Source of the DNA: Acidimicrobiales bacterium
Lineage (GTDB): Bacteria > Actinomycetota > Acidimicrobiia > Acidimicrobiales > RAAP-2
Direction of reading: 5' to 3'
DNA: 56,602 bases
NCBI GenBank assembly: GCA_030043315.1
Contig: JASHYA010000322.1
Location: 1-56,602 of the forward strand
In this document: positions 12,661-46,607 of the stretch, in pieces
Layout of the letters: each line of letters opens with the position of its first letter
How positions within the stretch are numbered: position 1 is the stretch's first letter
Made by a program: the position numbers and the translations under genes
The notes under the pieces: model-generated
What the model was told of the DNA's origin: nothing
Databases searched by the model: none
What the model saw: only the letters and a program-made list of their open reading frames with translations

Positions 12661-14142
12661 TCAGGGTCGCTCCGTCGCCACCTGCCACGCCGGACCCGTC
12701 CCAGGGCCTTGCTCCACCGCGGCGGCGAAGGCCGCCGCCAGGCGCCCACACTCCTCCCCGAGAGGTCGCCGGGACTCGATGGGCTGGATGTGGGCGCGCA
12801 CGAAGGCGAGCACGTCACGCAGCTTGGGGCTCACATCTCGCCCGGTGACGTGGAGGGCCTGCGAGCAGGTTGCAGCGAGCACCGCAAGCACCTCGTCCAG
12901 GCGGGCGGCCACTTCCCGCTCGGACAAGAACGCGATCGGTGCGGTGATGGCGACGTCGTCCTGCTCCGAGGCGGCGACCTCGGCCGGGGAGAGCAACGTG
13001 GGCTGGGCGAGGCGGCGCATCTCCTCTACGGCTTGGTTCGGGACGTATTCGAGGTAGGTGGTCGAGTGGCCGGTCGTGTAGTCGGTCCCAGGGGGCAGCA
13101 AGCGATCGGGAAGCCCTGAGACCGCACCACGGTGCAGCTTGACGATGTGACGTTGGGCGACGGCGGCGAGGTCGACCCACGCCGCCGACACGGCATCGAC
13201 GGCAGGTGCGGCAGCCGCGTCGTGAAAACCACCGGTCGAGAGGACGTCGGCTTCAGCTTGGCCCGTGGGCAGCAGGAACGTCGGATTGCTGACGACCGAA
13301 CGAAGCCCGCACGTCGCCACCTCCTCCAGACCCCACACGGCTCGCCGTGCCTGACCCAGGAGCCGGGGCAGGATTCGGTAGGCGGCCGGGGCGGACCGCT
13401 GCCGCCGTTCGCCGCCGGTGTCCTCGAGCCAGGAGGCCAGGGCTTCCAAGGCGGCCGAGGCGAAGGGGTCCCGCCACAGCTCCCCGAGCCGGGCGTCGCA
13501 CGCGTCAAGCGGGGCCCGAAAGGCCTCTATGGAGAGGGCCAGGCAGCCCTCCACCAGATCCACACGCCGGCGGGCGAAGATGGCGGTCAACCCCGCCATC
13601 GCGTGGGATGCGGGCGACCCGTTGCCCAGACCGGCCGAGAAGCCCTCGCCGGGGAAGATCCCCTCAGGGCCGCCGGTACGAAGGATGAAACGGGGCATGA
13701 GCTCGCCGGCGGCCACCAGCCCGCGAGCCGGCAGGCGGGCGAGCGGGCCGTCGAGGGAACTGGCGATGGACAGAGCCCGAGCCGGATGGGCGGCGGTCGC
13801 GCCCGAGACCAGCATGGGAAGAGAGGCGAGGACGGTGGCCCGGGACACGTACTCGGGGAGCGTTCCGCCCCCGAAGGACAGCCCCAGGAACGGCCGGGGA
13901 CGGCGGCGCCGGGCCTGAGCTTCCTCCAGTCCGTACCGCCGGCCGGCGTCGGGTCCGGCTCCCGTGGTGACCATGTAGATCGCGGAGTGCTCGTGGCGCG
14001 CCACGTGTTCCTGAAAGGCCGCGTGCGCCGCGGCCATGACCTCGAGCGCGCGGGCCGAGAGCCGGACGCCCTCGCCGCCGAGGGCTACGCGCCGGAGACT
14101 GTCCAGGTTGACGTCGGCAGGCCGGTCGATGAGGACGGTCAC
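12661..14142 (-). CDS. aromatic amino acid lyase-family (HAL/PAL fold) protein lacking the Ala-Ser-Gly MIO triad
   Basis: Family blocks: IYMVTTGAG (Tyr loop), AYRILPRLLGQA, VVSNPTF...STGGFH, EQDDVAITAP. The MIO loop reads RGLVAAGELMPRF where HAL has GSVGASGDLAPL. The GTG at 14142 overlaps the upstream stop (GTGA). Confidence 0.8.
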   Translation of the reverse strand: MTVLIDRPADVNLDSLRRVALGGEGVRLSARALEVMAAAHAAFQEHVARHEHSAIYMVTTGAGPDAGRRYGLEEAQARRRRPRPFLGLSFGGGTLPEYVSRATVLASLPMLVSGATAAHPARALSIASSLDGPLARLPARGLVAAGELMPRFILRTGGPEGIFPGEGFSAGLGNGSPASHAMAGLTAIFARRRVDLVEGCLALSIEAFRAPLDACDARLGELWRDPFASAALEALASWLEDTGGERRQRSAPAAYRILPRLLGQARRAVWGLEEVATCGLRSVVSNPTFLLPTGQAEADVLSTGGFHDAAAAPAVDAVSAAWVDLAAVAQRHIVKLHRGAVSGLPDRLLPPGTDYTTGHSTTYLEYVPNQAVEEMRRLAQPTLLSPAEVAASEQDDVAITAPIAFLSEREVAARLDEVLAVLAATCSQALHVTGRDVSPKLRDVLAFVRAHIQPIESRRPLGEECGRLAAAFAAAVEQGPGTGPAWQVATERP

Positions 14143-15608
14143 GGAACGGTTCCCGCGGTGGGCCCGGTGAGGCCGGCACGTCCTGTCGACGCCGCGGGTG
14201 GGAGGGGGAGGGAGCCGGTGACCGCGATGTCCGAGAGAGCCGCCGCCAGCCGCCCCACCTGAGCGCCCCGGTTCGCGGCTCGTGCGGGAGGGACGTAGGT
14301 ACGAACGAACGCGAGCAGGGGTCCCAGCCCGACCGGCGTGGGACGGTCGGTGAGGTCCAGGGCGTGGCTGGCGACCGCAGCCAGGACGGCCAGAGCCCCG
14401 TCGAGCTGAGCCGCGGCCGTCCACAGCCGCTCGGCGGCGACGAACGTCGGCAGGGCGACGTCTTCTTCACCTCCGTAGACCCCTCCCTCGGACGGGGGAA
14501 GGAACGTGCGGGCGGCGGCGTGGCGGGCCCGCTCGCCCAGGCCGACGGGAACGAACCCGAGGAGTCCCGTCGAAGTTCGACCGCCGGGTCCGGCCAGGCG
14601 GTCGGGCAACAGCGACACCGCCCCCCGATGGAGCTTGGTCGTGTGCCGGTCGGCCAGGGTGCAGAGGTCGGCCCACGTGGCCGCCAATGCGGCCATCGCA
14701 GGGTAGGCGGTCGCCGCGAACGAGCCGCCCGTGCTCAGGAGCGTCCCGTGCCCGCGGCCGTCGGTGGGCGGGAGGAAGACCTGATCCAGGGTCACGGCGC
14801 CGAGTGCGGACCGGGCAACGTCGTCGATCTGCGCCGCCGCCCGTCGGGCCTGTCCCAGGACCGGCGGAAGGACCCGATAGCTCACGGGGGCCTGGTAGGG
14901 ACGCCGGTCGGGGCCGGCGCCGGTCAGCCAGCGGTTGAGCCCGCCGAGGGCCTCGGCGACGAAGGGGTCGCCCCAGAGCCTCCCCAAAGCTGGGTCGTAG
15001 GCGGCGAGAGGGGCGGCCATCGCCTCGACGGAGAGCGCGAAGATGCCTTCGGCCAGAGCCAGGCGTCGGTGGGCCTGGAGGGCGGCGTCGGCGGCCAGTG
15101 CCGCCGAGCCGGGCGAACCGTCCAGCAGGGCCACGGCCTCGGCCTCCTGCAGATCGACCTCCGGCAAGCCTCGCAGCAGGTGGGCCAGGACCAACACCTC
15201 GCCCGCTGACGTCGTCCCCGCAACCGGGACCTCCGGCATGGGGCCGGCCAGCATCGAGGCAAGAGCCACGGCCACTTCGGGCCGACATGCGGCGTGCCCT
15301 TCGAGGAGGTCGGCGAGGCGGGCGAACACGATGCCGCGTACGACCCGCTCGGGAAGCCGAGTCTCCCCGAAGCCGTCGTCGGGCGGCCAAGCGGCCCGCC
15401 ACCCGGCGTCCTCGGCCGCCGGCGGAAGGGTGGCCAGCGGGAGATGAGCAACGGCGCTGTGTTCCAGAAGAAATGTGGCGAAGGAGCGGTGGGCGGCGGC
15501 CATGGCCCGACGTGCGCCGTGCGCCACGACCACCGTCTCCTTGTCGAAAGCCACTCGGCGGTAGTGCTCGAGGGTGATGTCGCCGCGATGGCGGACGGTG
15601 ACGGTCAG
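14139..15608 (-). CDS. degenerate aromatic amino acid lyase-family paralogue (no MIO triad, no Tyr loop)
   Basis: Family blocks: SYRVLPPVLGQA, STGGSF, EEDVALPTF. The MIO loop reads AGTTSAGEVLVLAH. The Tyr-loop region reads VAHLPLATL. The only start compatible with the N-terminal homology is CTG at 15608, overlapping the upstream TGA; the next in-frame GTG is about 17 codons downstream. Confidence 0.7.
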   Translation of the reverse strand: MTVTVRHRGDITLEHYRRVAFDKETVVVAHGARRAMAAAHRSFATFLLEHSAVAHLPLATLPPAAEDAGWRAAWPPDDGFGETRLPERVVRGIVFARLADLLEGHAACRPEVAVALASMLAGPMPEVPVAGTTSAGEVLVLAHLLRGLPEVDLQEAEAVALLDGSPGSAALAADAALQAHRRLALAEGIFALSVEAMAAPLAAYDPALGRLWGDPFVAEALGGLNRWLTGAGPDRRPYQAPVSYRVLPPVLGQARRAAAQIDDVARSALGAVTLDQVFLPPTDGRGHGTLLSTGGSFAATAYPAMAALAATWADLCTLADRHTTKLHRGAVSLLPDRLAGPGGRTSTGLLGFVPVGLGERARHAAARTFLPPSEGGVYGGEEDVALPTFVAAERLWTAAAQLDGALAVLAAVASHALDLTDRPTPVGLGPLLAFVRTYVPPARAANRGAQVGRLAAALSDIAVTGSLPLPPAASTGRAGLTGPTAGTVP

Positions 15609-16576
15609 GTTTGGCCCTGGTAGTCGACGACCGGCAGGCCGGCTTCCCGCCAAGCCACGAAACCGCCGTCGAGGTCGGTGGCGCGGGATAGCCCCAGGAA
15701 TTGGAGCTGCCGGGCCACCAGGCTCGAGGCGTAGCCCTCCATGCAGAACACGATGACGTGACGGTCGTAGGCGGCGATCTCGGAGATGCGGGAGGCGCTC
15801 CGGGGATCGAGGCGCCACTCGATCACGTTGCGAGGGATCGCCACCGCGCCAGGGATCTCGCCGGCCGCCTGGCGCTGCTCGACGGGGCGGATATCGACGA
15901 GCACCGCCCCCCCAGCCAAGGCGGTGGCGGCTTCGTGCGGCGAGAGCCGGACCAGGTGGCTCCGAGCCCTGGCCAGCAGCTCGTCGATGCTGTACGAGGC
16001 GGGTTGGCCGGGGGGGGTCGGCTCGGGGGAGTCGGTGGCGGCCGTCTCGACGGCCCCGAGGTCTCCGTCGCTCCACTGCTGATAGAAGGTCATGCTGGCC
16101 AGGGGTGGGGAGTAGGCGTGCAGGCTGACGGCGGGGCCTGGCCCCTCGTTGCCGACCACGTGGACGTAGGCGGCCCCGAAGCTGGCCCCTTCACCCGTGC
16201 CGAGCACCCTGCGGGAGAGCCGCAGCGGGCGGCGGGCGCTGTACCGCTCGACCAGCGATCCCTCCACGACCGTGAACGATCCGGAGGAGCCGCCGTGATC
16301 GTGGAGCCTCGTCTCTTGGGAGACGGCCCAGCCCTGCAGCCAAACGTCGACGTTCGACGCCAGGTGGAGCCGCTTGTACCAGCGGTGCGCAGCGTCGATC
16401 TGCACCACCGGTCGCCAGAGCTGCTCCGCGTGGGCGACGGCGGCCGTGAGGAGGGCCAGAGAGCGTGGAGGGATCCGGGACGAACCGAGTCGCAGGGAGT
16501 CGACGAGCGCGTCGATAGAACGATCGATTCCGCCCGAGCGAGGGTCGGCAACGGTCACCGACATCGAAACGAGCAC
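15605..16576 (-). CDS. cysteine dioxygenase type I (cupin) fused to a rhodanese domain
   Basis: CDO motifs: RLHDHGGSSGSFTVVEGSL and SLHAYSPPL. The C-terminal rhodanese domain reads LVDIRP...VIVFCMEGYAS, with the active-site Cys in CMEGY. The start is GTG at 16576 or ATG at 16564; AAGGAGGGAGG lies upstream. Confidence 0.8.
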   Translation of the reverse strand: MLVSMSVTVADPRSGGIDRSIDALVDSLRLGSSRIPPRSLALLTAAVAHAEQLWRPVVQIDAAHRWYKRLHLASNVDVWLQGWAVSQETRLHDHGGSSGSFTVVEGSLVERYSARRPLRLSRRVLGTGEGASFGAAYVHVVGNEGPGPAVSLHAYSPPLASMTFYQQWSDGDLGAVETAATDSPEPTPPGQPASYSIDELLARARSHLVRLSPHEAATALAGGAVLVDIRPVEQRQAAGEIPGAVAIPRNVIEWRLDPRSASRISEIAAYDRHVIVFCMEGYASSLVARQLQFLGLSRATDLDGGFVAWREAGLPVVDYQGQT

Positions 16577-16651: not shown

Positions 16652-17191
16652 TTACTGGCGTCGCAGGCGCCCGTAGTAGGGGTGGGTGACCTCGTCTCTG
16701 TCGTCGATGTGGCGCTGTACGGCTTCGGGCGGCCGTCCCTCGACGGCCTCGGCGATCGCCTGCCCGGCAGCATGTCGGGCTGCTTCCAAGACGGCAGGCT
16801 CGCTCTCGGCCGCGGGGTCCAGGTACACGGAGACCAGGACGGTCGTCTCCTGGTCGGCTTCGAGGTGTCCGACAGCCACCGCGTCGAGCACGGCCCGGGC
16901 TACCCCGACCTGAACTGCGCCGGCGAGCAAGGTCTCCTGCCGTTCGTCCGTGGCGGCGACCTTGTTGACCAGGATCGTGGGTGGGTAGAGGGTCTCGTAC
17001 GAGGGCTGGTCCCGGCCCAGGCAGGCAAGGATGGGCGTGTAGCCGGGCGACGGGGCCGTGAAGGCGGTGATCATGGCGGCGGCCGTGGGGGTCCCCCGGC
17101 GGGCCAGGATCACGTTCAAGTGGACGCCGTTCGGCGCGGTGCCACCCCATCCTTGGGCGATGCGTCCGTCGAGGTCCCGGCCTGCTGCCAT
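16652..17191 (-). CDS. formaldehyde-activating enzyme (Fae) family protein
   Basis: 179 aa. Matches from my memory of Fae: GVHLNVILARRGTP ~ VAHIDLIIGPRGSP, NKVAATDERQ ~ NKVTINDARQ, VARAVLDAVAVG ~ VAMAVQDAVAEG, and a C-terminal THPYY ~ THPF. ATG with a GGAGG SD. Confidence 0.55.
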   Translation of the reverse strand: MAAGRDLDGRIAQGWGGTAPNGVHLNVILARRGTPTAAAMITAFTAPSPGYTPILACLGRDQPSYETLYPPTILVNKVAATDERQETLLAGAVQVGVARAVLDAVAVGHLEADQETTVLVSVYLDPAAESEPAVLEAARHAAGQAIAEAVEGRPPEAVQRHIDDRDEVTHPYYGRLRRQ

Positions 17192-17370: not shown

Positions 17371-18516
17371 ATGCCGCCGACGGTGAGGTCCCAGGCGGCG
17401 GTGCTGGAGAAGGTGGGTGCCAGCCTCCAGCTGGCCGAGCTGGATCTCGCCGCGCCCGGACCGCAGGAAGTCCTGGTCCGGATCCACGCCAGTGGCGTCT
17501 GCCACAGCGACCTCAGCGTCATGACCGGAGTGATCGGCACGCCTCTCCCTGCCGTCCTCGGCCACGAGGCGGCCGGCGTGGTGGAGGCGGTCGGGCCCGG
17601 CGTCACTCGCGTGGTGCCCGGTGATCACGTGGTCCTCTCATGGAGTCCGTCATGCGGTGCCTGCGACGAGTGCCTCCGTGACCTCCCCCAGCTGTGCACG
17701 GCCGCGTGGCCGGCGATGTTCGCCGGCGGCCTCCTCGACGGGACGTCCCGACTCTCCCGTGCCGGAGAGCCCGTCTACCACTATTCGCTGATCTCCTCGT
17801 TCGCCGAGCGGGCCGTGGTTTCCGAGCGCTCCTGCGTCGTCATCCCCCGAGAGGCCCCGTTCGAGGTGGCTTCCATCGTGGGGTGCGCGGTGACGACGGG
17901 CGTCGGCGCAGTCTGGAACACCGCCAGGGTCCGTCCGGGCGATCGGGTGGCCGTCCTCGGTATCGGAGGGGTGGGGCTGAGCGCAGTGATGGGCGCTGCC
18001 GCCGTCGGGGCATGGCCGATAGTCGCCGTCGACCGGGTGCCCGACAAGCTGGAGCTGGCCCGCAGCTGCGGTGCCACCCACGCCGTGCAATGGGCAGGAT
18101 CGGCGGAGGACACCGCCGAGGCGATCCGGTCGGCGTCGGGCGGAGGAGTGGACTACGCGGTCGAGGCGATCGGCCGCCCGGAGGTGGGGTTGGCGGCGTT
18201 TCTCTCGACCCGGGCCCGGGGAGCGGCCGTCCTGATCGGAATCTCCAAGGAAGGCGAGACCTTGGACCTTCCGCTCCTCTCGATCCCCCGGCTCGAGCGG
18301 CGCGTGCTTGGCAGCATCTACGGCTCGGCACGGCCCGAGCGGGACTTCCGGCTGATCCTGGATCTCTACCTCGCCGGCCGTCTACCGCTCGATCGACTGG
18401 TCTCGGGTCGGCTGCCCCTGGATGGCGTCAACGAAGCCCTCGAGCTCGTCCGGGCCGGCTTGGCCACCCGCACGGTGCTCCTTCCGACCACGGAGGCCAC
18501 CGGCTCTCACCGATAG
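17371..18516 (+). CDS. Zn-dependent alcohol dehydrogenase, class III / S-(hydroxymethyl)mycothiol dehydrogenase-like
   Basis: GVCHSDLSV...GHEAAGVV, structural Zn CGACDEC, and GIGGVGL. The C-terminus DLYLAGRLPLDRLVSGRLPLDGVNEA closely resembles mycothiol-dependent formaldehyde dehydrogenases. Confidence 0.85.
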   Translation: MPPTVRSQAAVLEKVGASLQLAELDLAAPGPQEVLVRIHASGVCHSDLSVMTGVIGTPLPAVLGHEAAGVVEAVGPGVTRVVPGDHVVLSWSPSCGACDECLRDLPQLCTAAWPAMFAGGLLDGTSRLSRAGEPVYHYSLISSFAERAVVSERSCVVIPREAPFEVASIVGCAVTTGVGAVWNTARVRPGDRVAVLGIGGVGLSAVMGAAAVGAWPIVAVDRVPDKLELARSCGATHAVQWAGSAEDTAEAIRSASGGGVDYAVEAIGRPEVGLAAFLSTRARGAAVLIGISKEGETLDLPLLSIPRLERRVLGSIYGSARPERDFRLILDLYLAGRLPLDRLVSGRLPLDGVNEALELVRAGLATRTVLLPTTEATGSHR

Positions 18517-18526
18517 CGTCGGTCGA

Positions 18527-19657
18527 ATGCTGACCCGCGCCGAGCTCGAAGGCCCGAACGCGAAAGCCGCCCTCGCCCGCCTGCGCGCCGTCGGACCGGT
18601 CGCGTGGGTCTCCGATCTCGAGGCCTGGGTGGTGACCGGCTACGACGTCGCGGTCGAGGTGTTGCGCGACGCCCGGACCTTCACCGTGGACGACCCCCGC
18701 TTCTCGACCGCACAGGTGGTCGGCGCCAGCATGCTGTCACTCGACGGCGGCAGCCACCGCCGGCATCGGGATCCGTTCGTGCCGCCGTTCCGGCCCGGCC
18801 AGGTCGAGTCCAGCTTCGGGCCCGCCGTCCGCCGGCTCGCGGCCGACCTCGTCGAGCTCATCCGGCCCGCTGGTCACGGCGACCTGCGCGCCGGCCTGGC
18901 GAGGCCCCTCGCTGCAGGCACCATCGCCGCCGCGCTCGACCTGCCCGTGGACGCCGCGACCGTGCTCGAGTGGTACACCGCCATCGCCGGGGCCGTGTCG
19001 GCCATCACGGCAGGCGAGCCCCCGGGTTCCGCGGCTCCGGCCGCCGTCGGCCACCTCGCCGCCAGCGCTCAGGCGGCAGCCGGCTCTCCGGGGTCGGTGC
19101 TCGGCGCGGCGGCGGCCAGCCTCAGCCGCGCGGAGGTCGCGTCCAACGCCGCGGTGGTGCTGTTCGGCGGCGTCGAGACCACCGAGGCCATGATCGCCAA
19201 CGCCTTCGTGCACCTTTTGAGCTCCGACCTCACGGGTGCCGGCCGAGATGACGCCTCGTGGCTCGCCGCGGCGGTCGAGGAGTCGCTGCGCATGGAGCCG
19301 GCCGCCGCCTTCGTCGACCGTTACGCCACCGCCGACGCGACCGTTGGCGGCGCCCGGATCCGAGCCGGGGACCTGGTGCGGGTGTCGCTCAGCGGCGCCA
19401 ACCGCGACCCCGCGGTCTTCCCCGACCCCGACACCTTCGACCCGGAGCGCTCCAACGTGCGCGCCCAACTCTCGTTCGCCCGCGGGCCGCACACCTGCGT
19501 GGCCATGGACCTGGCCCGGCTCGAGACGCGCACTGCCCTGGAGGCCGCCTGGCGCATGTTGCCCGGGCTGCGCCTGGTCGGCCCGACGCCGATCCGGGGC
19601 CTCGTGTTCCGCAAACCGGACACGGTGTCCGTCGTCTGGGATGAAGGATCGAGGTGA
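18527..19657 (+). CDS. cytochrome P450 (short, 376 aa)
   Basis: I-helix FGGVETT, EESLR (ExxR) and heme loop FARGPHTCVAMDLAR. The ATG at 18527 lies 11 nt after the ADH stop. No ferredoxin or reductase gene is present in the window. Confidence 0.85.
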   Translation: MLTRAELEGPNAKAALARLRAVGPVAWVSDLEAWVVTGYDVAVEVLRDARTFTVDDPRFSTAQVVGASMLSLDGGSHRRHRDPFVPPFRPGQVESSFGPAVRRLAADLVELIRPAGHGDLRAGLARPLAAGTIAAALDLPVDAATVLEWYTAIAGAVSAITAGEPPGSAAPAAVGHLAASAQAAAGSPGSVLGAAAASLSRAEVASNAAVVLFGGVETTEAMIANAFVHLLSSDLTGAGRDDASWLAAAVEESLRMEPAAAFVDRYATADATVGGARIRAGDLVRVSLSGANRDPAVFPDPDTFDPERSNVRAQLSFARGPHTCVAMDLARLETRTALEAAWRMLPGLRLVGPTPIRGLVFRKPDTVSVVWDEGSR

Positions 19658-21400: not shown

Positions 21401-22018
21401 TCAGATCTCCTGTTCGGGGTAGCCGGTCAGGCCGATTCCGAACTCTTGGCCCGCGTCGGCGAGTGCGTCGAACAGGAACTGCCCAGAAGAACGGTCGGAC
21501 ACGATGAGGTAGGACGGGTCTCCATCGACGTCATCGCGCACGACGGTCGAGACGACGGCTGCGACACGGCTCCGGAAGCTGGAGCCGTTCGGCGTGGCGC
21601 GGTCGGACAGGTCGATGGCGCACACCTTCTCGAGGGCCCTTCTGGCGCTCTCTCCGCTGAGACGGAGCACCACGCTCCCATGCGTCACGTCGATGACCGT
21701 CACGAGCGACGTGCAGCCGCGGAGCCGGGAGGCGATCATCTCCGAGACGGCGTCGGACCTCCCGGTGGGCGCGAGGACGAGCCAGCTGTCCGGCCCGGTC
21801 CCGACGATCAGGCTGCCGTCCTCGCGACGGGCACGGAGGTGCTCGCACAACAACGGGGCGACCTCGCCCGGCGCCCCCCGCACGAGCACCTTCGAGAGGG
21901 CGGTCATGTCGGCGAGGCGGAGCGCCGCCTTCGAGTGCGCGCTGCTCACCTCCCATGCGCCCCGCGTTCCCGTCGGTCCGGCGGGTGCGATCGGCGAGCG
22001 TGCGACGGGCTCAGCCAC
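21401..22018 (-). CDS. soxG: sarcosine oxidase-family gamma subunit (SoxG / N-methylglutamate dehydrogenase MgdD type)
   Basis: SoxG-like sequence: ARSPIAP..., LRLADMTALSKVLVRG, VIDVTHGSVVLRLSG. The GTG at 22018 overlaps the soxA end by 8 nt; the alternative start at 22051 would overlap by 41 nt. Confidence 0.75.
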   Translation of the reverse strand: MAEPVARSPIAPAGPTGTRGAWEVSSAHSKAALRLADMTALSKVLVRGAPGEVAPLLCEHLRARREDGSLIVGTGPDSWLVLAPTGRSDAVSEMIASRLRGCTSLVTVIDVTHGSVVLRLSGESARRALEKVCAIDLSDRATPNGSSFRSRVAAVVSTVVRDDVDGDPSYLIVSDRSSGQFLFDALADAGQEFGIGLTGYPEQEI

Positions 22019-25138: not shown

Positions 25139-25166
25139 CGCCCCTTCTCCCTCGCCTCGCCCGGCA

Positions 25167-33272: not shown

Positions 33273-33281
33273 ACCTGCCTC

Positions 33282-34993: not shown

Positions 34994-35007
34994 CGTGCTC
35001 TCCTTTC

Positions 35008-36402: not shown

Positions 36403-36487
36403 AGGCCCTCCCGTCAGACGGAAGCCGGGGTTTCCCCTCAGGAAACTCCGACTGCTCTCATGATACGGGTCACCCAGCTCAGGCGCA

Positions 36488-38281: not shown

Positions 38282-39781
38282 TTACGAAGACGCGGACACG
38301 CCCGCCGGCGCGAGCTTTTCTTCCTGCTGCAAGAGTGCCATCTGCGCCGCAGAGGGCACGACGTCCGTCGGCTCGCGGAAGGTGATGGGCTTCTTGTCCT
38401 GCACGACTCGCCTGAAGACGAAGAGGACGAGCGAACCGACGAGCACACCGACGCCGATGCCGAGATCGGTCCAGGTGCCGTACCCGGTAAGCGTGGGGTT
38501 CGCGATCCCGTATATCAGGAACACCAGGTTCACCACGAGGAAGAGCCCGGCGAGCACTACCCAGGGACTGCCCACCTTGATCGGTCTCGGCCAGTTGGGG
38601 CGGTCGCGTCGAAGTAGCAGGAACCCCGACAAGGCGAAGACATGGGCGATCACGTAGCCGATGTTGCTCATGTACAGGATCGCCAGGTTGCTCGAGATGA
38701 AGAGGATGAGGAGCGTGTTGACCACCATGTCGACGGTCATCGCGCGGCCGGGCACGTGGTACCTGTTCAGGTGGTAGAGCTGCTTGACCGTCATGTCGTC
38801 CCGGGCGATGCCGTACAACGCACGCGAGGCGTCCGCCGTCGACGAGATCATGGAGAGGAAGAGGCTGGCGATCAAACAGGCGACGACGAATCCGGCGGCG
38901 CCGCTCCCGACGATGTGGCTGAAGAAGGTGGTGTACCACTCGCCCTCGGCGGTCGCCGCGCTCGGTGCTCCGTAGCCTCCGGCGGCTCCGAGCGGGAACA
39001 GGATGGCAGCGAGGAGCGCGAAGGTCGCCCCGGAACGCAGTGCGACGGCGGTATCACGCTTCGTGTTGTGGTACTCGGGGGCGAACGTGGCGCATATCTC
39101 CACCCCGTAGGTGTTCCAGGCCATGAGGAACAGGTAGACCATGGCGAGCTTAAAGCCGCCGTAGCCGCTCAGGACCCACGTCATCCTCGAGGACGACCAC
39201 CCGCCAGAGATGTAAGAGCCGAAACTGACGATGACGAGGGGCACGAGCAACCCGACGCCGGTCACGTAGGAGACCCAGACGGCTGGGCGGAGTCCGAAGA
39301 TATTGAGCAACCAGACGACGATGATGCAGCCGATCCCTATGAGGTCGTTCGGGGTGACGTTCAGCACCCCGTCGCTGAACACCTTGATCCCGTCCTCGGC
39401 GGGGAACCACTGCGCGGTGACGAGATCGCCGATCGTCTTGCCGAAGATCGAGAGGACGACCGACCAGCCGATCCAATAGCCGAAGGCTCCGAGCGGTCCG
39501 ACAAGGGAGAACCGCGAGCGCCAGCCCTCGAAGGCGTACAGGGAGATTCCTCCCGGCTTGTCCGGGAACATCGCGGCGGTCTCCGAGTAGATCCACGCCT
39601 GTAAGAGGCCTATCGCCGCCGAGATGGCCCAAAGGACAACGGCCGCCGTCGTGCCCAGGGCGTCGAGGGTGTACCCCAGGAACGCGATCATGAAGCCGGG
39701 GTTACACATTGCGATGACGAACCCGTCCCACCAGCGGAGCGACTTCAGAAGCTGGCGCTCCTCCACGACCGCTACGGCCAT
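38282..39781 (-). CDS. APC-superfamily amino acid/amine permease
   Basis: About 12 TM. LRWWDGFVIAMCNPGF, YSETAAMFPDKPGG. The ATG at 39781 is preceded by GGGGAGGG. Confidence 0.8.
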   Translation of the reverse strand: MAVAVVEERQLLKSLRWWDGFVIAMCNPGFMIAFLGYTLDALGTTAAVVLWAISAAIGLLQAWIYSETAAMFPDKPGGISLYAFEGWRSRFSLVGPLGAFGYWIGWSVVLSIFGKTIGDLVTAQWFPAEDGIKVFSDGVLNVTPNDLIGIGCIIVVWLLNIFGLRPAVWVSYVTGVGLLVPLVIVSFGSYISGGWSSSRMTWVLSGYGGFKLAMVYLFLMAWNTYGVEICATFAPEYHNTKRDTAVALRSGATFALLAAILFPLGAAGGYGAPSAATAEGEWYTTFFSHIVGSGAAGFVVACLIASLFLSMISSTADASRALYGIARDDMTVKQLYHLNRYHVPGRAMTVDMVVNTLLILFISSNLAILYMSNIGYVIAHVFALSGFLLLRRDRPNWPRPIKVGSPWVVLAGLFLVVNLVFLIYGIANPTLTGYGTWTDLGIGVGVLVGSLVLFVFRRVVQDKKPITFREPTDVVPSAAQMALLQQEEKLAPAGVSASS

Positions 39782-40028
39782 GTCACCCTCCCCTTGCTGG
39801 AACCGCGCTGGCACTCCGTGCGGGCGACAGACTCCCCATCCCGGCCCCCTGCAGCCAGCCGCTCGTGTTCACTGTTGCGAAACTGTGTCCACTGCGGATA
39901 ACTTCGTCGGCATAGTAGTCCACGCCGGGGGAAATGTGAAGGGACTCTTTGGGCCCCGTTTCCTCCCCGGGGTTGTGGCCTATCTTGCACGCCATGGCGA
40001 CGGTACAAGCCCGGAGGGGACACCAGAG

Positions 40029-40805
40029 GTGAAGGCAGTGGTCTGCGTCAAGCAGGTCGTAGCCATCGGCGACGAGATCGCCTTCACCGACGACGGCAAG
40101 TCGGTCGACGGCGACTACCTCGATCATGCGGTGAACGAGTGGGACGTCGTCGCCGTCGAGGAGGCCCTCCGCATGACCGAGGCGGCGTCCGCAGCGGGCG
40201 AGGAGTCGGAGGTCGTCGTCGTGACGGTCGGCGGCGAGGAGAACGAGGAAGCGCTCAGGCGATGCCTCGCGATGGGGGCGCAACGCGCCATCCGCGTCGA
40301 GGGCCAGTCCGGTGCGCTCCTTGATCCGCTCACGGTCGCCCGCCGGCTGGCTCCCGTCGTCGCCCGCGAGGCGGCCGACGTCGTCCTGTGCGGCGTGCAG
40401 TCGAGCGACTCGGTGCAAGCCGCCGTCGGCACGATGCTCGCCGAGCTCCTCGAGCTGCCGCGCGTGGCCGTCGTGAAGGAGATCTCCCTCGACAGGGCCG
40501 ACGGCACGGCCACGGTGATGCGGGAGCTCGAGGGCGGTCTCGTCGACGTCGTCGAGGTCGACCTCCCGGCCCTCCTCACCGTCCAGACCGGCATCAACGA
40601 ACCTCGGTACGCGACGCTGCGGGCGATAAAGCAGGCAAACCTGAAGGAGATCGAGGTCGTCGAGCCGAGCCAAGATGCGCCCGGCTGCTATGAGATCCTC
40701 CGGATCTATGCGCCGCCACGGGGCGAAGGAGCCGAGATGCTCGAGGGCAGCCCTGCCGAGGTGGCGGCACGCATCGTCGAGCTCGTAAAGGCCCGGCTGT
40801 CATGA
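40029..40805 (+). CDS. etfB: electron transfer flavoprotein beta subunit
   Basis: (V)KAVVCVKQV, NEWDVVAVEEALR, VLCGVQSSD, PRYATLRAIKQA. GTG with a GGAGGGG SD. Confidence 0.9.
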   Translation: MKAVVCVKQVVAIGDEIAFTDDGKSVDGDYLDHAVNEWDVVAVEEALRMTEAASAAGEESEVVVVTVGGEENEEALRRCLAMGAQRAIRVEGQSGALLDPLTVARRLAPVVAREAADVVLCGVQSSDSVQAAVGTMLAELLELPRVAVVKEISLDRADGTATVMRELEGGLVDVVEVDLPALLTVQTGINEPRYATLRAIKQANLKEIEVVEPSQDAPGCYEILRIYAPPRGEGAEMLEGSPAEVAARIVELVKARLS

Positions 40806-41743
40806 GCGGGACGATCATCGTTGCCGAGCACCTGCAGGGTCGCCTCCGAGACGTGACCCGCGAGCTCGTCACGGCAGCGGCAACGCTGCCTGGACCGGTC
40901 ACCGTCGCAATCGTCGCGAGAGAGCCGGAGCGGATCGCCGCACAGGCCGAGCTCGAGGGCGTTAACGAGGTCGTTTTGGTTCGCGCTGGCGGGGACGAGT
41001 TCGAGAATGACGTCTACCAGGCGGCGCTCCAGGCACTCATCGCACAGCGCGCGCCGGAGGTGGTCCTCGTCGGCTTCACCGTGGGCGGGATGGGGTACGC
41101 CCCGGCTGTCGCGGCTCGGCTCTCGTGCGGATTCGCGAGCGACGTCTTCGGGCTGGAGCGGCGCGACGGGCGCCTCGTGTGTCGTCGCGCCTTCTACGGC
41201 GCAAAGGTGCATGGCGAAGTGGCGCTCCCCGCCGGCCGCACCTCCGTCGTAATGGTGCGTCCGACGGTCTTCGCGCCGGCGGCCGACGGAGCGAGCACCA
41301 GCCGCTCCGACATGTCGATCGACCCGGTAACGCCACGGGCACGCCACCTCCGGTTCGTCGAGGCGCCGCAGTCCGACGTCGACATCACGACGGCCGACTT
41401 CCTCCTCTCGATCGGACGGGGGATCGGTGACCGGGAGAACGTCGAGCGGTTCGTCAAGCTCGCCGAGCAGATGGGGGCGACGCTCTCGGTCTCTCGGCCG
41501 ATCGTGGACGCCGGTTGGATGCCCGCCGCACGCCAGGTCGGACAGTCGGGCAAGACCGTCAAGCCGAAGGTCTACCTGGCCCTCGGGATCTCGGGTGCGG
41601 TCCAGCACCTCGCCGGGATGAAGACGAGTGGCGCGATCATCGCCGTCAACACCGATCCGGAGGCGGCGATCTTCGACGTCGCCCACTACGGGGCGGTCGC
41701 CGATCTCTTCGACGTGGCCGACGAGCTCGAGAGGCTCTTCTGA
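40802..41743 (+). CDS. etfA: electron transfer flavoprotein alpha subunit
   Basis: ATGA overlap with etfB. FAD-binding C-terminus VGQSGKTVKPKVYLALGISGAVQHLAGM...IIAVNTDPEA. Confidence 0.9.
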   Translation: MSGTIIVAEHLQGRLRDVTRELVTAAATLPGPVTVAIVAREPERIAAQAELEGVNEVVLVRAGGDEFENDVYQAALQALIAQRAPEVVLVGFTVGGMGYAPAVAARLSCGFASDVFGLERRDGRLVCRRAFYGAKVHGEVALPAGRTSVVMVRPTVFAPAADGASTSRSDMSIDPVTPRARHLRFVEAPQSDVDITTADFLLSIGRGIGDRENVERFVKLAEQMGATLSVSRPIVDAGWMPAARQVGQSGKTVKPKVYLALGISGAVQHLAGMKTSGAIIAVNTDPEAAIFDVAHYGAVADLFDVADELERLF

Positions 41744-41746: not shown

Positions 41747-43873
41747 GTGGGCGAGACCCGCCCCGTCTACGCAGGTCTGAGCCACATCGAGGTCGTCCTC
41801 TTCTACGGCCTCGCCGTCGTCTCGACGGGGATCTTCTGCTGGGGCGTCGCTCGCCTTGTCCTGAAATACCGTGCTGGGCGGCGCGAACCTCTCGGCCGTC
41901 TCGTGCGACGGGCCTCGTCCATGGTGGACGTGGTCTTCTCCCACCGCTGGATCCGCCGCCGAGACCCGATCGCCGGGCTCGGACACCTGCTGCTGTTCTA
42001 CGGCTTCACGGCGCTCTTCATCGGAACGACGATCCTCGGCATCCAGACGGACATCGCCCGGCCAATCTTCCATGCCGACTTCTGGAGCGGCCGCTTCTAC
42101 CTCGGCTACAAGCTCGCCCTCGACATCGCGGGCGTCCTGCTCCTCGCGGGACTCACCCTCATGGCCTTCAACCGTGCGGTGCGCAGGCCGCGGCGCCTCG
42201 GCTACGCGCGCCCGGACCGCCGCGCGGGTGAGTACGACCGCAGCCTCTACCGGGTCGGGGACTGGGTCTTCCTCTCGACGCTGTTCTCCCTGGGCGTCAC
42301 GGGGTTTCTTCTCGAGGGCTTCTTCCTCGCTTCGACGCCCCAGCACTTCGCGGCGTGGTCACCGGTCGGGTGGGTGCTCATGAAGTGGTTCAGGGCGATG
42401 GGCCTAACCGGCAGCTCTGCTGCGCTCGCCCACCACGTGACGTGGTGGGTGCACGCGGTGCTCGCCCTCACCTTCGTGGCGTCAATCCCCTTCACGAAGG
42501 CGGTCCACATGATCGCAAGCCCCGCCAACGTCGCGGTGCGTGACCCGGCCGCCGGCAAACGGCTCTCCACCATTGCAGCCGACGCCGCCCCGGAGGACGT
42601 CGGCTACCGCAATCTCGACGACCTTTCTTGGCGCCACCTATTATCGCTCGACGCCTGCACGAAGTGCGGCAAGTGCACCGAGGCCTGCCCGGCTGCTGCC
42701 GCCGGCCTTCCGCTCTCGCCCAGGGATCTCATCTTGGACCTGCGCGAAGCGGCCGAGACCACGCTGGGTGCACACGCCGCGCTCGGCATCCGCCCCGACG
42801 GGTGGCCGGAGGGGCTCGACGTCCTCGGCGACCCGATCAGGACTGCGTCGGTATGGTCCTGCACGCAGTGCATGGCCTGTGTCGAGATCTGCCCGGTCGG
42901 TATCGAGCACGTCCCGATCATCAACCAGTTCCGCCGCCAGCTCGTCGAGCGCGGCGAGATGGACCCGATGCTGCAAAGAACGTTCGAGACCATCTCCTCG
43001 ACGGGGAACTCGTTCGGCGAGCCAAAACGAAGGCGTCCCAAGTGGACGGAAGGGCTCCAGTTCGCAGTGAAGGATGCTCGGAAGGAGGCGGCCGAGCTGC
43101 TCTGGTTCGTCGGCGACTACGCCAGCTTCGACCCGCGCAACCAGCGCAATTCGCGTGCCCTCGCCGAGGTGCTCCGCAGAGCCGGCGCCGACTTCGCCAT
43201 GTTGTACGAAGCCGAGAGGACCGCCGGCTGTGACGTTCGCCGCGCCGGTGAAGAGGGCCTCTACTCCTCCCTCGCCGAGGCGAACATCGAGGCGATCTCG
43301 GGCTGCGAGTTCGAGAGGATCTTCTCGACCGACCCGCACACCTTTCATACGTTGAAGAACGAGTACCCGGGCTTCGGCGGCAGCTGGACCGTGCTCCACC
43401 ACAGCGAGCTGCTCCTCGAGCTCATCGAAGCGGGCCGGCTCGAGCTACGCCCTCTCGGCTACCGGGTGACCTACCACGACCCGTGCATGCTCGGGCGTTA
43501 CAACGAGGTCTACGACGCGCCGAGGCGCGTGCTCGAAGCGATCGGCGTCGAGCTCGTCGAGATGCCGCGCAACCGCGACAATTCCCTGTGCTGCGGGGCA
43601 GGCGGCGGCCGCATCTGGATGAAGGAGCAGCGGCCGGAGGGTTCACGCCGCGCGAGCGAGCAGCGGATCGACGAAGCGACGTCGCTCGGTCGCCTCGACT
43701 ATTTCGTGGTGGCCTGTCCGAAAGACGTCACGATGTACTCGGACGCCATCAAGACCTCGGGCCACGACGGCGAGATCGAGCTGCGTGAGCTGAGCGAGCT
43801 CGTCCTCGAGTCGATCGGCGCGCCGACAGACTCGGCAACTGCCCTCGCCGGGACGAAGGTCGCGCCGGACTGA
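41747..43873 (+). CDS. membrane-bound Fe-S oxidoreductase (EtfD / HdrD-GlpC-like), probable ETF:quinone oxidoreductase
   Basis: N-terminal multi-TM domain. Two 4Fe-4S motifs (CTKCGKCTEACP, CTQCMACVEICP). C-terminal CCG domains (HDPCMLGR, SLCCGAGGG). Starts 4 nt after etfA. Confidence 0.8.
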   Translation: MGETRPVYAGLSHIEVVLFYGLAVVSTGIFCWGVARLVLKYRAGRREPLGRLVRRASSMVDVVFSHRWIRRRDPIAGLGHLLLFYGFTALFIGTTILGIQTDIARPIFHADFWSGRFYLGYKLALDIAGVLLLAGLTLMAFNRAVRRPRRLGYARPDRRAGEYDRSLYRVGDWVFLSTLFSLGVTGFLLEGFFLASTPQHFAAWSPVGWVLMKWFRAMGLTGSSAALAHHVTWWVHAVLALTFVASIPFTKAVHMIASPANVAVRDPAAGKRLSTIAADAAPEDVGYRNLDDLSWRHLLSLDACTKCGKCTEACPAAAAGLPLSPRDLILDLREAAETTLGAHAALGIRPDGWPEGLDVLGDPIRTASVWSCTQCMACVEICPVGIEHVPIINQFRRQLVERGEMDPMLQRTFETISSTGNSFGEPKRRRPKWTEGLQFAVKDARKEAAELLWFVGDYASFDPRNQRNSRALAEVLRRAGADFAMLYEAERTAGCDVRRAGEEGLYSSLAEANIEAISGCEFERIFSTDPHTFHTLKNEYPGFGGSWTVLHHSELLLELIEAGRLELRPLGYRVTYHDPCMLGRYNEVYDAPRRVLEAIGVELVEMPRNRDNSLCCGAGGGRIWMKEQRPEGSRRASEQRIDEATSLGRLDYFVVACPKDVTMYSDAIKTSGHDGEIELRELSELVLESIGAPTDSATALAGTKVAPD

Positions 43874-43890
43874 GGCCGCTCGCGCAGGCG

Positions 43891-44402: not shown

Positions 44403-46607
44403 CTACGCTCCCATCGGCTGCAGGTCCGAGCTGGCGAGCACGGCATCGTAGACCTTGTTGTCGACCAGTCCCCACAAGCGGCGCTCGCGGATGAACGGCA
44501 GCGGGAGCGCCGGGTTCGGGCTGTCGATTTCGCGGGCGAGGCGGTGGCCGTCGAAGATGCAGTCGACCATCATCCGAGGGGCGCTCGCGTCCCCGATGAT
44601 GTAAACGGCCTCTACCTCGTTCGCTTCGAGGGCAGCCGGGTCGTCCTTCAGTTCCCGGAAGAGGGCATCGTCCGAAACGCGCGCCGTGCACAAGACGAGG
44701 GTATCGACCTCGAAGCGCTCCTTGGCCGTCGGGTCCCAGACGTTGTAGGCGTGCACGACTCCGGGTTCGACTCGCTCGATCATCGTCTCGGGGTGGAGGT
44801 GGACATGCAGGCGATGGAGCTCGCGGTGCATCATCGGGGCCTCGAGCGTGTACTCCATGTACTTGGCGATGTCGCCGCGGTGGGTGAGGAGGTAGACCTC
44901 GTGCCCCTCGCCAGCGAGCTTCTGGGCGAGGGTTACGCCCATGAAGTAGGCCTCGTTATCGAGGACGAGCACGCGTCGGCCGATCGGCTTTCGATCGAGG
45001 GCCACATCCTCGGGAGTGAGCTGCCACTCCTGGCCCACGGCGTCGACGCCAGGGATCGTGTCGTGCGTCGCGGAGTTGAGACCGTCCGTCGCCCAGTAGC
45101 AGCCGGTGGCGACGACGATGATCTCGGCTCCGTACTCGCGCGCCTGGGCGGCATCGAGCCGGCTGTTCGTGTGCACCTCAACGTTGCGCAGCTTGTCGAG
45201 CTGGATCTGCCGGTAGTTGACGACCCGCTTCCAGTCTCCTAGACCACGCGCAGTTCCGCGGAAGATGTTCGGGTGCCCATCGGAAAACCCAAGGGTGGAG
45301 ACCCAGTTGACGTTGCCGCCGATGTCGGGTAGCGCCTCGATCAGGTGGACTGCCGACATCTCACGCTTTCCGAGGATCTGTGCGCACTCCATCCCTGCGG
45401 GACCCGCACCAACGACGAGGACGCTCTTGTCGGCATTCTTCGCCCGATGGAAACGCTCGGGGTGCCATCCGCGGCGGTACTCCTCGCCAGCGGTGGCGTT
45501 CTGCGTGCACACCATCGGCGGACCACCTATCTCCCATCGCGAGATGCACTGGTTGCAGCCGATGCATTCGCGGATGTCGTCGAGACGACCCTCCTCGATC
45601 TTCTTCGGGAGGAAGGGATCAGAAATGGAAGGACGAGCGGCTCCGATCAGGTCGAATTGACCGGAGTTGATGATCGCAATCATCGTGTCGGGGCTCGTGA
45701 CCCGGCCGACACCGACCACGGGCTTATTCGTGTGGTTACCCGGCTTTATGACGCCGGAGTACGGCTTCTCATGGTTCTCCTCGAAGAAACGGCTCGGGCC
45801 GGCGTTCTGTCCCCACTCTGCGATGTCGCCAACGGTGAAGTCCCACAGATCGACAAGGTCGTCGCAGTACTCGACGAATCGGATGCCATCCTTCTCGAGC
45901 TCGACTCCCGCAGGGCCATAGAGCGAGTCGACGGCGAACCGGGAGGCGATGGCGCAGTCGTCGCCGACAGCCTCGCGCACCTTCTCGAGGCTCTCCCGCC
46001 AGAACCGCGCCCGGTTCTCGAACGAACCGCCGTACTCGTCGGTCCTCTTGTTCGACCACGGGGAGAGGAACTGCAGAGGTAGGTAGCTGTGCGCCCCGTA
46101 TACGTAGATGATGTCGAAGCCGGCTTCGCGGGCGCGGATGGCGGCGTCGACGTAGTACTGCTGCAGGAGCTTGATGTCGTCCTTGTCGGCGTACCGGGGA
46201 TAGATGTTCGCCTCGAACTCCGAGGCGATCTGAGATGGGCCGCGCGGCGTGTCACGCGACTCGTGGCAAGGGGCATGGGGCCCGCCGTACCAGAGCTCGA
46301 TCCCAGCGAGGGCACCGAACTGATGGAGACGTTGACACATCACCGAGAGGTTCTGGATGTCTCCGTCGTCCCAGATGCGGGCGGAGACGCGCATCGTGTC
46401 GTCGGACTCGGGGCTGATCGAGCAGTACTCGGTGCAGCAGGCAGCCCAGCCGCCCTCTGCCTTTATGCCGCGGTGGTACGCCTGCATCCCGGGCTTCTCC
46501 GAACCCGCTCCGATGCAGTGAGGAACCTGGTAGAAGCGGTTCCTCAGCGTCTTCGGTCCGATCTTGACCGGTTCGAACAGCACGTCGTACTTCGCGTCCC
46601 TGGCCAT
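44403..46607 (-). CDS. tmd: trimethylamine dehydrogenase (FMN / 4Fe-4S / ADP-binding, TMADH family)
   Basis: Nearly colinear with my recollection of Methylophilus TMADH: ARDAKYDVLFEPVKIGPKTLRNRFYQVPHCIGAG (Cys30 for 6-S-cysteinyl FMN) and CIGCNQCISRWEIGGPPMVCTQNATAGEEYRRGWHPE. Y60/S74/W105 equivalents are present. The ATG at 46607 has a GGGGGGAG SD. Confidence 0.9.
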   Translation of the reverse strand: MARDAKYDVLFEPVKIGPKTLRNRFYQVPHCIGAGSEKPGMQAYHRGIKAEGGWAACCTEYCSISPESDDTMRVSARIWDDGDIQNLSVMCQRLHQFGALAGIELWYGGPHAPCHESRDTPRGPSQIASEFEANIYPRYADKDDIKLLQQYYVDAAIRAREAGFDIIYVYGAHSYLPLQFLSPWSNKRTDEYGGSFENRARFWRESLEKVREAVGDDCAIASRFAVDSLYGPAGVELEKDGIRFVEYCDDLVDLWDFTVGDIAEWGQNAGPSRFFEENHEKPYSGVIKPGNHTNKPVVGVGRVTSPDTMIAIINSGQFDLIGAARPSISDPFLPKKIEEGRLDDIRECIGCNQCISRWEIGGPPMVCTQNATAGEEYRRGWHPERFHRAKNADKSVLVVGAGPAGMECAQILGKREMSAVHLIEALPDIGGNVNWVSTLGFSDGHPNIFRGTARGLGDWKRVVNYRQIQLDKLRNVEVHTNSRLDAAQAREYGAEIIVVATGCYWATDGLNSATHDTIPGVDAVGQEWQLTPEDVALDRKPIGRRVLVLDNEAYFMGVTLAQKLAGEGHEVYLLTHRGDIAKYMEYTLEAPMMHRELHRLHVHLHPETMIERVEPGVVHAYNVWDPTAKERFEVDTLVLCTARVSDDALFRELKDDPAALEANEVEAVYIIGDASAPRMMVDCIFDGHRLAREIDSPNPALPLPFIRERRLWGLVDNKVYDAVLASSDLQPMGA

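Follow-up and report, generated by a model that had tools for sequence, protein, structure and literature searches.

Contig JASHYA010000322.1, from an uncultured soil Acidimicrobiales bacterium, carries genes for the oxidation of trimethylamine (TMA) together with three genes for lyases of the histidine ammonia-lyase (HAL) fold that lack the 4-methylideneimidazole-5-one (MIO) group. Are these lyases the source of the TMA that the neighboring genes would consume? The original prediction proposed that they are. It read the locus as a TMA sink with no known source and joined its genes into one route from a betaine through TMA, dimethylamine (DMA) and monomethylamine (MMA) to N-methylglutamate (NMG) and one-carbon (C1) units. 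Our analysis of the window, which is the entire 56,602-bp contig, partly supports this interpretation. The balance of evidence leans modestly toward two separately conserved modules that are juxtaposed in this genome, with the lyases as an extra internal source of TMA and not the reason for the sink. Module A (~21.4-46.6 kb) would be a methylated-amine oxidation island, and module B (~3.7-21.3 kb) a betaine-type amino-acid catabolic module. The most solid new results are a lyase pair with complementary degenerate active sites (LYA1/LYA2) and a recurrent association between genes for CDO-type thiol dioxygenases and the third lyase, LYA3.

Because the G+C content of the window is ~68%, genes were called from third-position GC bias (GC3 frame analysis) and then annotated with Pfam and NCBIfam. 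Every gene of the original inventory was recovered at the same position. The resulting map is nearly gap-free, and the longest stretch without assignment is ~470 bp, so a large overlooked gene is excluded within the window. The 465-bp gap at 31413-31878, from the start of the DAO gene to the stop of mgsC, holds overlapping open reading frames (ORFs) at 31417-31962 (plus strand) and 31453-32334 (minus strand) with no Pfam match. The results below cover which genes are present, their residue patterns, their synteny and how often they co-occur; substrates, subunit assembly, the DMA step and any co-regulation are predictions drawn from them.

Genes for trimethylamine and methylamine oxidation

The genes of module A are as follows.

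44403-46607, minus strand: trimethylamine dehydrogenase (TMADH), 734 aa, 889 bits to 2TMD
between the EtfD-like and TMADH genes: a Usp gene
41747-43873, plus strand: EtfD-like membrane Fe-S oxidoreductase (Pfam Fer4 and CCG)
~40020-41743, plus strand: etfB and etfA (Pfam ETF and ETF_alpha)
38282-39814, minus strand: APC-family permease related to TmoP
37342 to ~38300, minus strand: PhyH-family Fe/2-oxoglutarate oxygenase
35008 to ~36400, minus strand: gmaS (Pfam Gln-synt_C; NCBIfam type III glutamine synthetase-like)
34061-35074, 33282-34073 and 31878-33272, minus strand: mgsA, mgsB and mgsC (Pfam GATase_6, GXGXG and Glu_synthase)
30076-31413, minus strand: DAO-family FAD oxidoreductase (Pfam DAO)
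28891-30027, minus strand: GcvT2, a homologue of the C-terminal tetrahydrofolate (THF)-binding domain of Tdm
28604-28894, minus strand: small hydrophobic membrane ORF of 96 aa with no Pfam match
27456-28580, plus strand: GcvT1
26616-27200, minus strand: HTH_3 and cupin regulator (Pfam)
21401-26507, minus strand: soxB-soxD-soxA-soxG, of the heterotetrameric N-methylglutamate dehydrogenase type (mgdABCD)

Judged by its sequence, the product of 44403-46607 is a true TMADH. The protein scores 889 bits against the Methylophilus enzyme (2TMD/1DJN) and 512 bits against histamine dehydrogenase (HADH), and its Oxidored_FMN, OYE-like_second_a-b and Pyr_redox_2 domains (Pfam) make up the three-domain architecture of EC 1.5.8.2. 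Alignment to 1DJN shows that it keeps Cys30, which carries the 6-S-cysteinyl FMN, and the aromatic bowl formed by Tyr60, Trp264 and Trp355, so the TMA-type specificity residues that had been claimed for it are indeed present. Position 60 is Gln in dimethylamine dehydrogenase, and the equivalent positions of HADH are occupied by Gln and Asp. A CxxCxxC...C motif aligns with the 4Fe-4S ligands Cys345, Cys348, Cys351 and Cys364. Tyr169 and His172 of the catalytic triad are kept, and Asn stands in place of Asp267; relative to the Methylophilus enzyme, Val344 is also changed to Glu and Tyr442 to Arg. In that enzyme, these three positions are implicated in the catalytic triad and in docking of the electron transfer flavoprotein (ETF).

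The electron-transfer and transport genes lie close by. The EtfD-like protein, encoded beside etfBA, has ~5 hydrophobic segments at its N-terminus followed by the Fer4 and CCG domains, and the sole NCBIfam match of the APC permease is the trimethylamine N-oxide (TMAO) permease TmoP. We propose that TMA enters through this TmoP-like permease and that TMADH would convert it to DMA and formaldehyde, with electrons passing to EtfBA and from there, by way of the membrane EtfD-like protein, to the quinone pool. The PhyH oxygenase is a possible oxidative N-demethylase; its identification as such was not upheld, as its matches are weak and uninformative (SnoN, SnoK and PHYHD1). The same gene adjoins the TmoP-like permease gene in 9 Acidimicrobiales TMADH loci, with 52-73% identity.

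The genes gmaS, mgsABC and soxBDAG match the NMG pathway in their domains and in being clustered, and NMG specificity is predicted. The gmaS-mgsABC block as a whole spans 31878-36567 and is syntenic in ~20 TMADH loci (62-90% identity); the gmaS score falls under the NCBIfam cut-off. In the sox operon, NCBIfam scores are 495 bits for soxB, 850 bits for soxA and 64 bits for soxG, the soxD ORF (24842-25219) was confirmed by its Pfam SoxD match, and soxBDAG synteny is common to the related loci L146-L151. Through GmaS, MgsABC and MgdABCD, MMA would yield glutamate and methylene-THF. The order GcvT2-small ORF-GcvT1-regulator-soxBDAG is likewise syntenic in relatives, where the regulator at the equivalent position is 82-88% identical. 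The 96-aa ORF is kept between GcvT2 and GcvT1 in L146 and L150, where a part of it aligns at 44-56% identity. In both loci a gene for a molybdopterin oxidoreductase (3292-5325 in L146; 3608-5431 in L150), with no counterpart in the window, separates the HTH-cupin regulator from soxB; the L146 protein includes an Fe4S4 domain and is possibly formate-dehydrogenase-like.

The ETF genes with their membrane acceptor, the NMG genes, two GcvT-like genes and two Zn-dependent alcohol dehydrogenases (Zn-ADHs) were thus all confirmed, and the sink is complete apart from the step from DMA to MMA. The best candidate for this step, predicted from domain composition, is the DAO flavoprotein working with the Tdm-C-like GcvT2, because the pair resembles a split dimethylglycine oxidase. 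The DAO protein has weak similarity to SoxB and to dimethylglycine oxidase, and its gene occurs in 16 of 80 TMADH loci, beside mgsC or the permease gene. Mitochondrial relatives of dimethylglycine oxidase use ETF as acceptor. GcvT2 scores 357 bits against residues 409-787 of Tdm (9q5a) and 477 bits against the Tdm model, whose cut-off is 1100, with only model positions 386-762 covered. A role for GcvT2 as the TMAO demethylase Tdm itself was rejected, since the DUF1989 half is missing and no DUF1989 domain occurs anywhere in the window. The PhyH oxygenase, the cytochrome P450 described below and TMADH itself are alternatives for the DMA step.

The claim that no known TMA-forming enzyme accompanies the sink stood in part. 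The GC3-supported ORFs of the window contain no glycyl-radical, Rieske, molybdopterin, DUF1989 or glycine/betaine-reductase domain, and so none of CutC, CntA/YeaW, TorA, GrdH or a full Tdm. The phrase "no known source" is nevertheless partly semantic, because ergothionase-type lyases are themselves a known TMA-forming family.

MIO-less lyases and their neighbors

The three lyase genes are as follows.

12661-14142, minus strand: LYA1, putative catalytic subunit of a MIO-less HAL/TAL-fold pair (PF00221, 137 bits)
14139-15578, minus strand: LYA2, its degenerate partner, probably non-catalytic alone (PF00221, 103 bits)
19741-21201, minus strand: LYA3, a MIO-less HAL-fold lyase (PF00221, 358 bits)

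All three proteins lack the Ala-Ser-Gly triad and have one residue deleted at that site, as had been predicted. LYA3 reads VGISD where HAL carries VGASGD, and LYA1 has VAAGEL in place of VGASGDL.

Against HAL (6v6h), LYA3 scores 198 bits, slightly more than its 181 bits against ergothionase (6s7j). It retains Tyr53, His83, Asn195, Gln277, Arg283, Asn313 and Glu414, and, as in ergothionase, Tyr280 is replaced by Leu (QDPLTFRC). At the position of the thiolate-binding Lys384 of ergothionase (Treponema denticola numbering), LYA3 has Leu. This residue pattern is found in 120 of 120 closest homologues, in which position 384 is Gly, Val or Leu. We therefore rejected ergothionase as an assignment for LYA3; LYA1 (Tyr) and LYA2 (Phe) also lack Lys in the aligned column, so none of the three should be filed under that name. 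A residue signature like that of LYA3 was used to predict, and then to verify, the histidine-betaine lyase activity of Swoo_3913 (bioRxiv 10.1101/2025.08.13.670108), and the characterized MIO-deficient lyases require a trimethylammonium (trimethylamino) group (10.64898/2026.04.22.720169). LYA3 is accordingly a predicted trimethylammonia-lyase, most likely acting on histidine betaine (hercynine) or a close imidazole betaine to give urocanate and TMA; more broadly, histidine betaine or ergothioneine-type compounds are the substrates that the evidence indicates for it. Because LYA3 matches the signature of characterized trimethylammonia-lyases, the release of TMA beside a TMA-oxidizing island is plausible. 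Betaines are a reasonable substrate class, but glycine betaine is not implied. By inspection, the LYA3 N-terminus has no evident signal peptide.

LYA1 and LYA2 are paralogues with 40-44% identity, and their genes overlap by 4 bp, an arrangement of translational coupling. LYA1 keeps Tyr53, Asn195, Arg283, Asn313-Pro and His330; its His83 is replaced by Leu, its Glu414 by Gln, and Gln277 is lost. Across 112 LYA1-type homologues the same five elements are kept (Arg283 in 109), the MIO triad is missing from every one, His83 is Leu, Thr or Pro, and Glu414 is Gln. LYA2 has the opposite losses. Its Tyr53 loop is deleted or diverged (His or a gap stands there), Asn195 and Asn313 are both Asp and the Asn-Pro motif is lost, and it keeps QAPVSYR with Gln277 and Arg283. 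Gln277 is near-invariant in the family and lost in ~10 LYA1-type proteins, among them every one encoded beside an LYA2 partner (P0001, P0002, P0005, P0008 and L088_b490); solo LYA1-type homologues with known context retain it. The two genes are adjacent in five independent loci (the window, L001, L005, L006 and L088), with the 4-bp overlap wherever coordinates exist.

In HAL-fold tetramers, an active site takes its Tyr/Asn set from one chain and its Gln/Arg set from another. Given this architecture, the complementary loss of residues argues that LYA1 and LYA2 most likely form an obligate heteromer of TAL-like type. LYA1 would supply the catalytic Tyr loop and the Asn residues, and LYA2 the Gln/Arg carboxylate clamp, and the substrate of the pair may be a betaine without an imidazole, possibly an aromatic one, from which a trialkylammonium group would be eliminated. 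The "three lyases" of the original prediction would then amount to two enzymes, because the catalytic Tyr loop and Asn-Pro motif are both missing from LYA2. To our knowledge the HAL/PAL/TAL family has no heteromeric member, the fold being known only as homotetramers; literature searches, which were not aimed at heteromers, returned none. The LYA1/LYA2 clade is small, comprising 591 clusters (50% identity) at E<=1e-3 in an exhaustive search of 1.84 billion representatives.

The lyase genes are surrounded by the following genes of module B.

3692 to ~5800, minus strand: fused double ATPase of an Opp/Dpp-type ABC importer (Pfam ABC_tran twice and oligo_HPY)
5806 to ~6700 and 6777 to ~7750, minus strand: OppC and OppB (BPD_transp_1)
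7945-9183, minus strand: enolase-superfamily (MR_MLE) enzyme (Pfam MR_MLE_N and MR_MLE_C)
beside the enolase-superfamily enzyme: one of the two Zn-ADHs
10839-12602, plus strand: family-5 solute-binding protein of an ABC importer (Pfam SBP_bac_5, 235 bits)
15605-16576, minus strand: CDO-type thiol dioxygenase-rhodanese fusion (Pfam CDO_I and Rhodanese)
16652-17191, minus strand: Fae-like protein (Pfam Fae, 94 bits)
17371-18516, plus strand: the other Zn-ADH (Pfam)
18422-19657, plus strand: cytochrome P450 (Pfam)

We propose that the Opp-like importer, the enolase-superfamily enzyme, the CDO-rhodanese fusion, the Fae-like protein, the ADHs, the P450 and two MIO-less lyase systems together make up module B, and that the TMA it releases would be mineralized by module A. 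LYA1 and LYA2 belong to a run that starts with the Fae-like gene and continues through the CDO-rhodanese gene to LYA2 and LYA1, with intergenic gaps of 75, 77 and -4 bp. The His motifs of the CDO-rhodanese fusion could be aligned to those of CDO (8qfl), and CDO-like genes flank LYA3 orthologues in 8 loci. A literature search, confined to one library, returned nothing relevant on an ergothioneine thiol dioxygenase, nor on TMADH with the NMG pathway in Actinobacteria. Orthologues of the Opp importer (60-77% identity) flank lyase genes in L006, L090, L104 and L105, and the solute-binding protein is 68% identical to the one beside the lyases in L006. The Fae-like protein is probably not a classical tetrahydromethanopterin-dependent formaldehyde-activating enzyme, because in L090 (2032-3645) its domain is fused N-terminally to MR_MLE beside an LYA3 orthologue; L103 (2688-3782) has a partial match to this fusion. 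For the window's own MR_MLE enzyme, we found no support for a proline-betaine or hydroxyproline-betaine epimerase: its NCBIfam matches are galactonate-dehydratase-like, and its best PDB matches, 4e4u and 4e5t, are structural-genomics targets of the Enzyme Function Initiative. The ADH at 17371-18516 is 51-53% identical to an ADH encoded downstream of soxG and the formate-tetrahydrofolate ligase gene (FTHFS) in relatives. A scan of 12.0-22.5 kb for promoters and terminators that would set operon limits gave nothing above shuffled controls.

Further genes flank the two modules, those at the right end being unrelated.

1-3611, left end: Ku and LigD (non-homologous end joining)
46911-56493, right end: DUF2255, PNPOx-like, luciferase-like monooxygenase (LLM), BetI-type TetR, amidohydrolase and agmatine-deiminase-like genes
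within 46911-56493: urease ureAB (fused) and ureC, and a second SBP_bac_5 gene

The contig ends without any urease accessory gene.

Conservation of the two gene sets

The proposal that the sink implies an internal source, and with it the expectation that tmd/etf and lyase genes co-occur, can be examined in other genomes. On the TMADH side, we collected 80 orthologue loci with 10-kb flanks from 80 Actinomycetota species genomes. Orthologues are 83-88% identical in Acidimicrobiales and 75-78% identical in Solirubrobacterales and Thermoleophilaceae. Their flanks carry EtfB in 72 loci, EtfA in 69, EtfD in 63 and the permease in 64; GcvT-like genes occur in 43, gmaS/mgsABC in ~20, the DAO gene in 16 and PhyH in 9. 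Organisms with the classical TMADH grow on external TMA. The island brings an importer of its own and is conserved where no lyase accompanies it, so the lack of another source is no valid argument that the lyases feed the sink.

On the lyase side we examined ~45 loci (L001-L007 and L088-L145), and a true TMADH is absent from all of them. A TMADH-family gene (L097, 1814-3982; 645 bits to TMADH) is the divergent neighbor of an LYA3 orthologue with 73% identity. We rejected it as a sign of coupling, since Cys30 is replaced by Ala and Trp355 by Glu; from these substitutions the paralogue is predicted to be an amine dehydrogenase of other specificity. A crude comparison of the TMADH loci with the top lyase homologues, which is weak evidence, found no shared contigs. 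The commonest neighbor of LYA3 orthologues is a PF02574 gene (homocysteine S-methyltransferase/BHMT-like), present in at least 12 loci (among L088-L099, L112, L125 and L126), a hint that the pathway includes methyl transfer linked to betaine or S-methyl compounds. This gene is absent from the window. Urocanase adjoins LYA3 orthologues in L090, L121 and L137, and other neighbors are the Opp importer of the window's type and the Fae-MR_MLE fusion.

The LYA2-LYA1 pair recurs with a third lyase that is either LYA3-like or ergothionase-like. L001, L006 and L007 carry a lyase trio with genes typical of ergothioneine catabolism (urocanase, S-Me-THD, M20 and amidohydrolase) and FTHFS. The third lyase of this trio is likely, on residue pattern and gene context, a true ergothionase variant, because the L006 protein (6836-8533, 565 aa) has QDPLSFRC as in ergothionase and Arg at the Lys384 position, and urocanase and S-Me-THD are its neighbors.

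Several points weigh against the preferred explanation. No lyase lies within 10 kb of TMADH in any of the 80 loci, a flank too short for the 23-kb spacing seen in the window. We therefore also examined the soxG side. There, the gene directly after soxG is FTHFS in all four related Acidimicrobiales arrangements, and none has a lyase at this position. Two of these arrangements are on contigs with TMADH orthologues of 87% identity. The gap from soxG to FTHFS is 2 bp in three of the four, whereas in the window, which contains no FTHFS, soxG is followed by 199 bp and then LYA3; this gap makes co-transcription of LYA3 and soxG uncertain. LYA3 is only 28% identical to ergothionase, and neither urocanase nor another route for lyase products was found in the window. 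LYA1 is just 14-16% identical to ergothionase and nearer to TAL, so its leaving group is less firmly predicted than that of LYA3. Finally, the DAO protein could equally be an NMG or sarcosine-type oxidase.

Some of these points bear on how closely the two modules are linked. One account holds that they are independent neighbors: module A would serve imported TMA and methylamines, module B would salvage ergothioneine, hercynine or aromatic betaines without channeling the amine, and their adjacency would date from an insertion or a rearrangement in which the FTHFS gene after soxG was replaced. The contrast between the 2-bp soxG-FTHFS gap and the 199 bp before LYA3 fits this account, as do the absence of lyases from the 80 TMADH loci, the dedicated permease adjoining TMADH, and the association of LYA3 orthologues with PF02574, CDO, Opp and urocanase genes and not with sox, mgs or tmd. 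However, TMA released in a TMADH-expressing cell would be oxidized anyway. In addition, the trio of L001, L006 and L007 stands beside an FTHFS that is 79-82% identical to the one after soxG in relatives, which hints at a second juxtaposition of lyases with a C1 island. Fully independent neighbors appear fairly unlikely to us, and we prefer the reading of separately conserved modules that are functionally additive in this cell. The single route from betaine through TMA, DMA and MMA to NMG that had been proposed is plausible as such an add-on, because TMA made in the cell would be oxidized by the island, but the modules it unites look separately conserved and are joined only here.

A different objection concerns the chemistry. 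The MIO-less proteins, especially LYA1 and LYA2, might release no TMA and instead expel another leaving group (dimethylamine, or a sulfonium or other onium), act as a mutase or isomerase, or be dead binding proteins. LYA1 and LYA2 have no imidazole ligands, their identity to ergothionase is 14-18%, and they stand nearest to TAL and TAM; the confident AF2 model of LYA1 (pLDDT 89) has RsTAL as its closest structure, with 26% identity, compared with 14% to ergothionase. LYA2 has no catalytic residues of its own, and the LYA1/LYA2 clade has no characterized member. Against this, Tyr53, Asn313-Pro, Arg283 and His330 are invariant or nearly so across the 112 LYA1-type homologues, which indicates conserved elimination chemistry. 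Ammonia elimination without MIO has no precedent, and characterized MIO-less members need trimethylammonium. We consider the objection quite improbable and retain TMA release, predicted with more confidence for LYA3 than for the pair.

Least probable, and in our view very doubtful, is the strict form of the original prediction, in which 12.6-46.6 kb is a single dedicated route and the sink is explained by the lyases as its physiological source of TMA: all components do lie within 34 kb, LYA3 is directly downstream of mgdABCD on the same strand, and one LYA3 orthologue stands beside a TMADH-family gene (L097), but the sink has an importer of its own and is found in 80 species genomes with no lyase within 10 kb, the L097 protein lacks Cys30 and Trp355 and is not a true TMADH, and the region comprises at least three transcription units on both strands with a regulator conserved with module A only.

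Carried furthest, the predictions would describe a specific pathway. LYA1/LYA2 would be the first obligate heteromer of the HAL/PAL/TAL superfamily and would form a second MIO-less lineage, one derived from TAL, whose substrate is an amino-acid betaine without an imidazole; the CDO-type dioxygenase and LYA3 would form an oxidative desulfurizing route for ergothioneine (via the 2-sulfinate to hercynine and sulfite, then to urocanate and TMA); and the TMA would be mineralized by the adjacent TMADH-ETF-NMG island. We offer this combination tentatively, as it is unlikely to hold in every part. If true, soil Actinomycetota that release and oxidize TMA in one cell would tie the abundant fungal and actinobacterial pool of histidine betaine or ergothioneine-type compounds to methylamine and C1 cycling; TMA sources beyond gut and marine systems are poorly mapped. 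The TMADH-ETF-EtfD core, often with NMG genes, in at least 80 uncultured species of Acidimicrobiales, Solirubrobacterales and Thermoleophilaceae indicates widespread, little-studied TMA oxidation in soil Gram-positives, and LYA1/LYA2 provides a testable case of subunit specialization in a classic homotetrameric enzyme fold.

Comparison with known systems

LYA3 resembles the ergothionases of T. denticola (6S7J), Burkholderia sp. HME13 and Shewanella oneidensis (SO_3057) in its HAL fold, the missing MIO group and the one-residue deletion. It also shares their catalytic Tyr, the Gln/Arg/Asn carboxylate binders, the His/Glu imidazole ligands and the QDPL(S/T)FRC motif. Lys384 is essential for ergothionase activity, whereas LYA3 has Leu and its family Gly or Val at this position. 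Compared by published signature and not by direct alignment, LYA3 is also like the histidine betaine trimethylammonia-lyase Swoo_3913 of S. woodyi and the N(pi)-methyl-histidine-betaine lyase SO_3299, which are MIO-less and have the binding residues and a neutral residue at 384. The Shewanella enzymes are located in the periplasm and serve anaerobic respiration through their coupling to flavocytochrome enoate reductases. In contrast, LYA3 is actinobacterial, its orthologues are linked to CDO-like, PF02574, Opp and urocanase genes, and here it adjoins a TMA-oxidizing island.

For LYA1, the TAL of Rhodobacter sphaeroides (2O6Y) and SgTAM are nearest to the model in structure and sequence (26% identity, TM 0.77-0.80). 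LYA1 shares Leu at the selectivity-switch region and Gln for Glu414 of HAL. The difference is that LYA1 and LYA2 lack the MIO triad and form a two-gene pair with complementary active-site loss.

The window's TMADH and ETF genes parallel the system of Methylophilus methylotrophus W3A1 (2TMD, 1O94) in Cys30, the aromatic bowl, the 4Fe-4S ligands and the adjacent ETF genes, and they differ from it in their actinobacterial host and in the clustered membrane EtfD-like acceptor and permease. Similarly, the NMG clusters of Methyloversatilis, Methylocella and Methylorubrum have the same domain set and clustering, but in the window these genes belong to a bigger island that also holds TMADH, DAO, PhyH and two GcvT-like genes. 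Three systems are relevant to the DMA step. DMA monooxygenase (DmmABCD) does not apply, as the window has neither a haem-PAS DmmA-like subunit nor a reductase subunit. Tdm combines an N-terminal DUF1989 with a C-terminal GcvT-like domain, and GcvT2 corresponds to the C-terminal half only. The DAO and GcvT proteins together resemble a split version of dimethylglycine oxidase, encoded in the window by separate genes.

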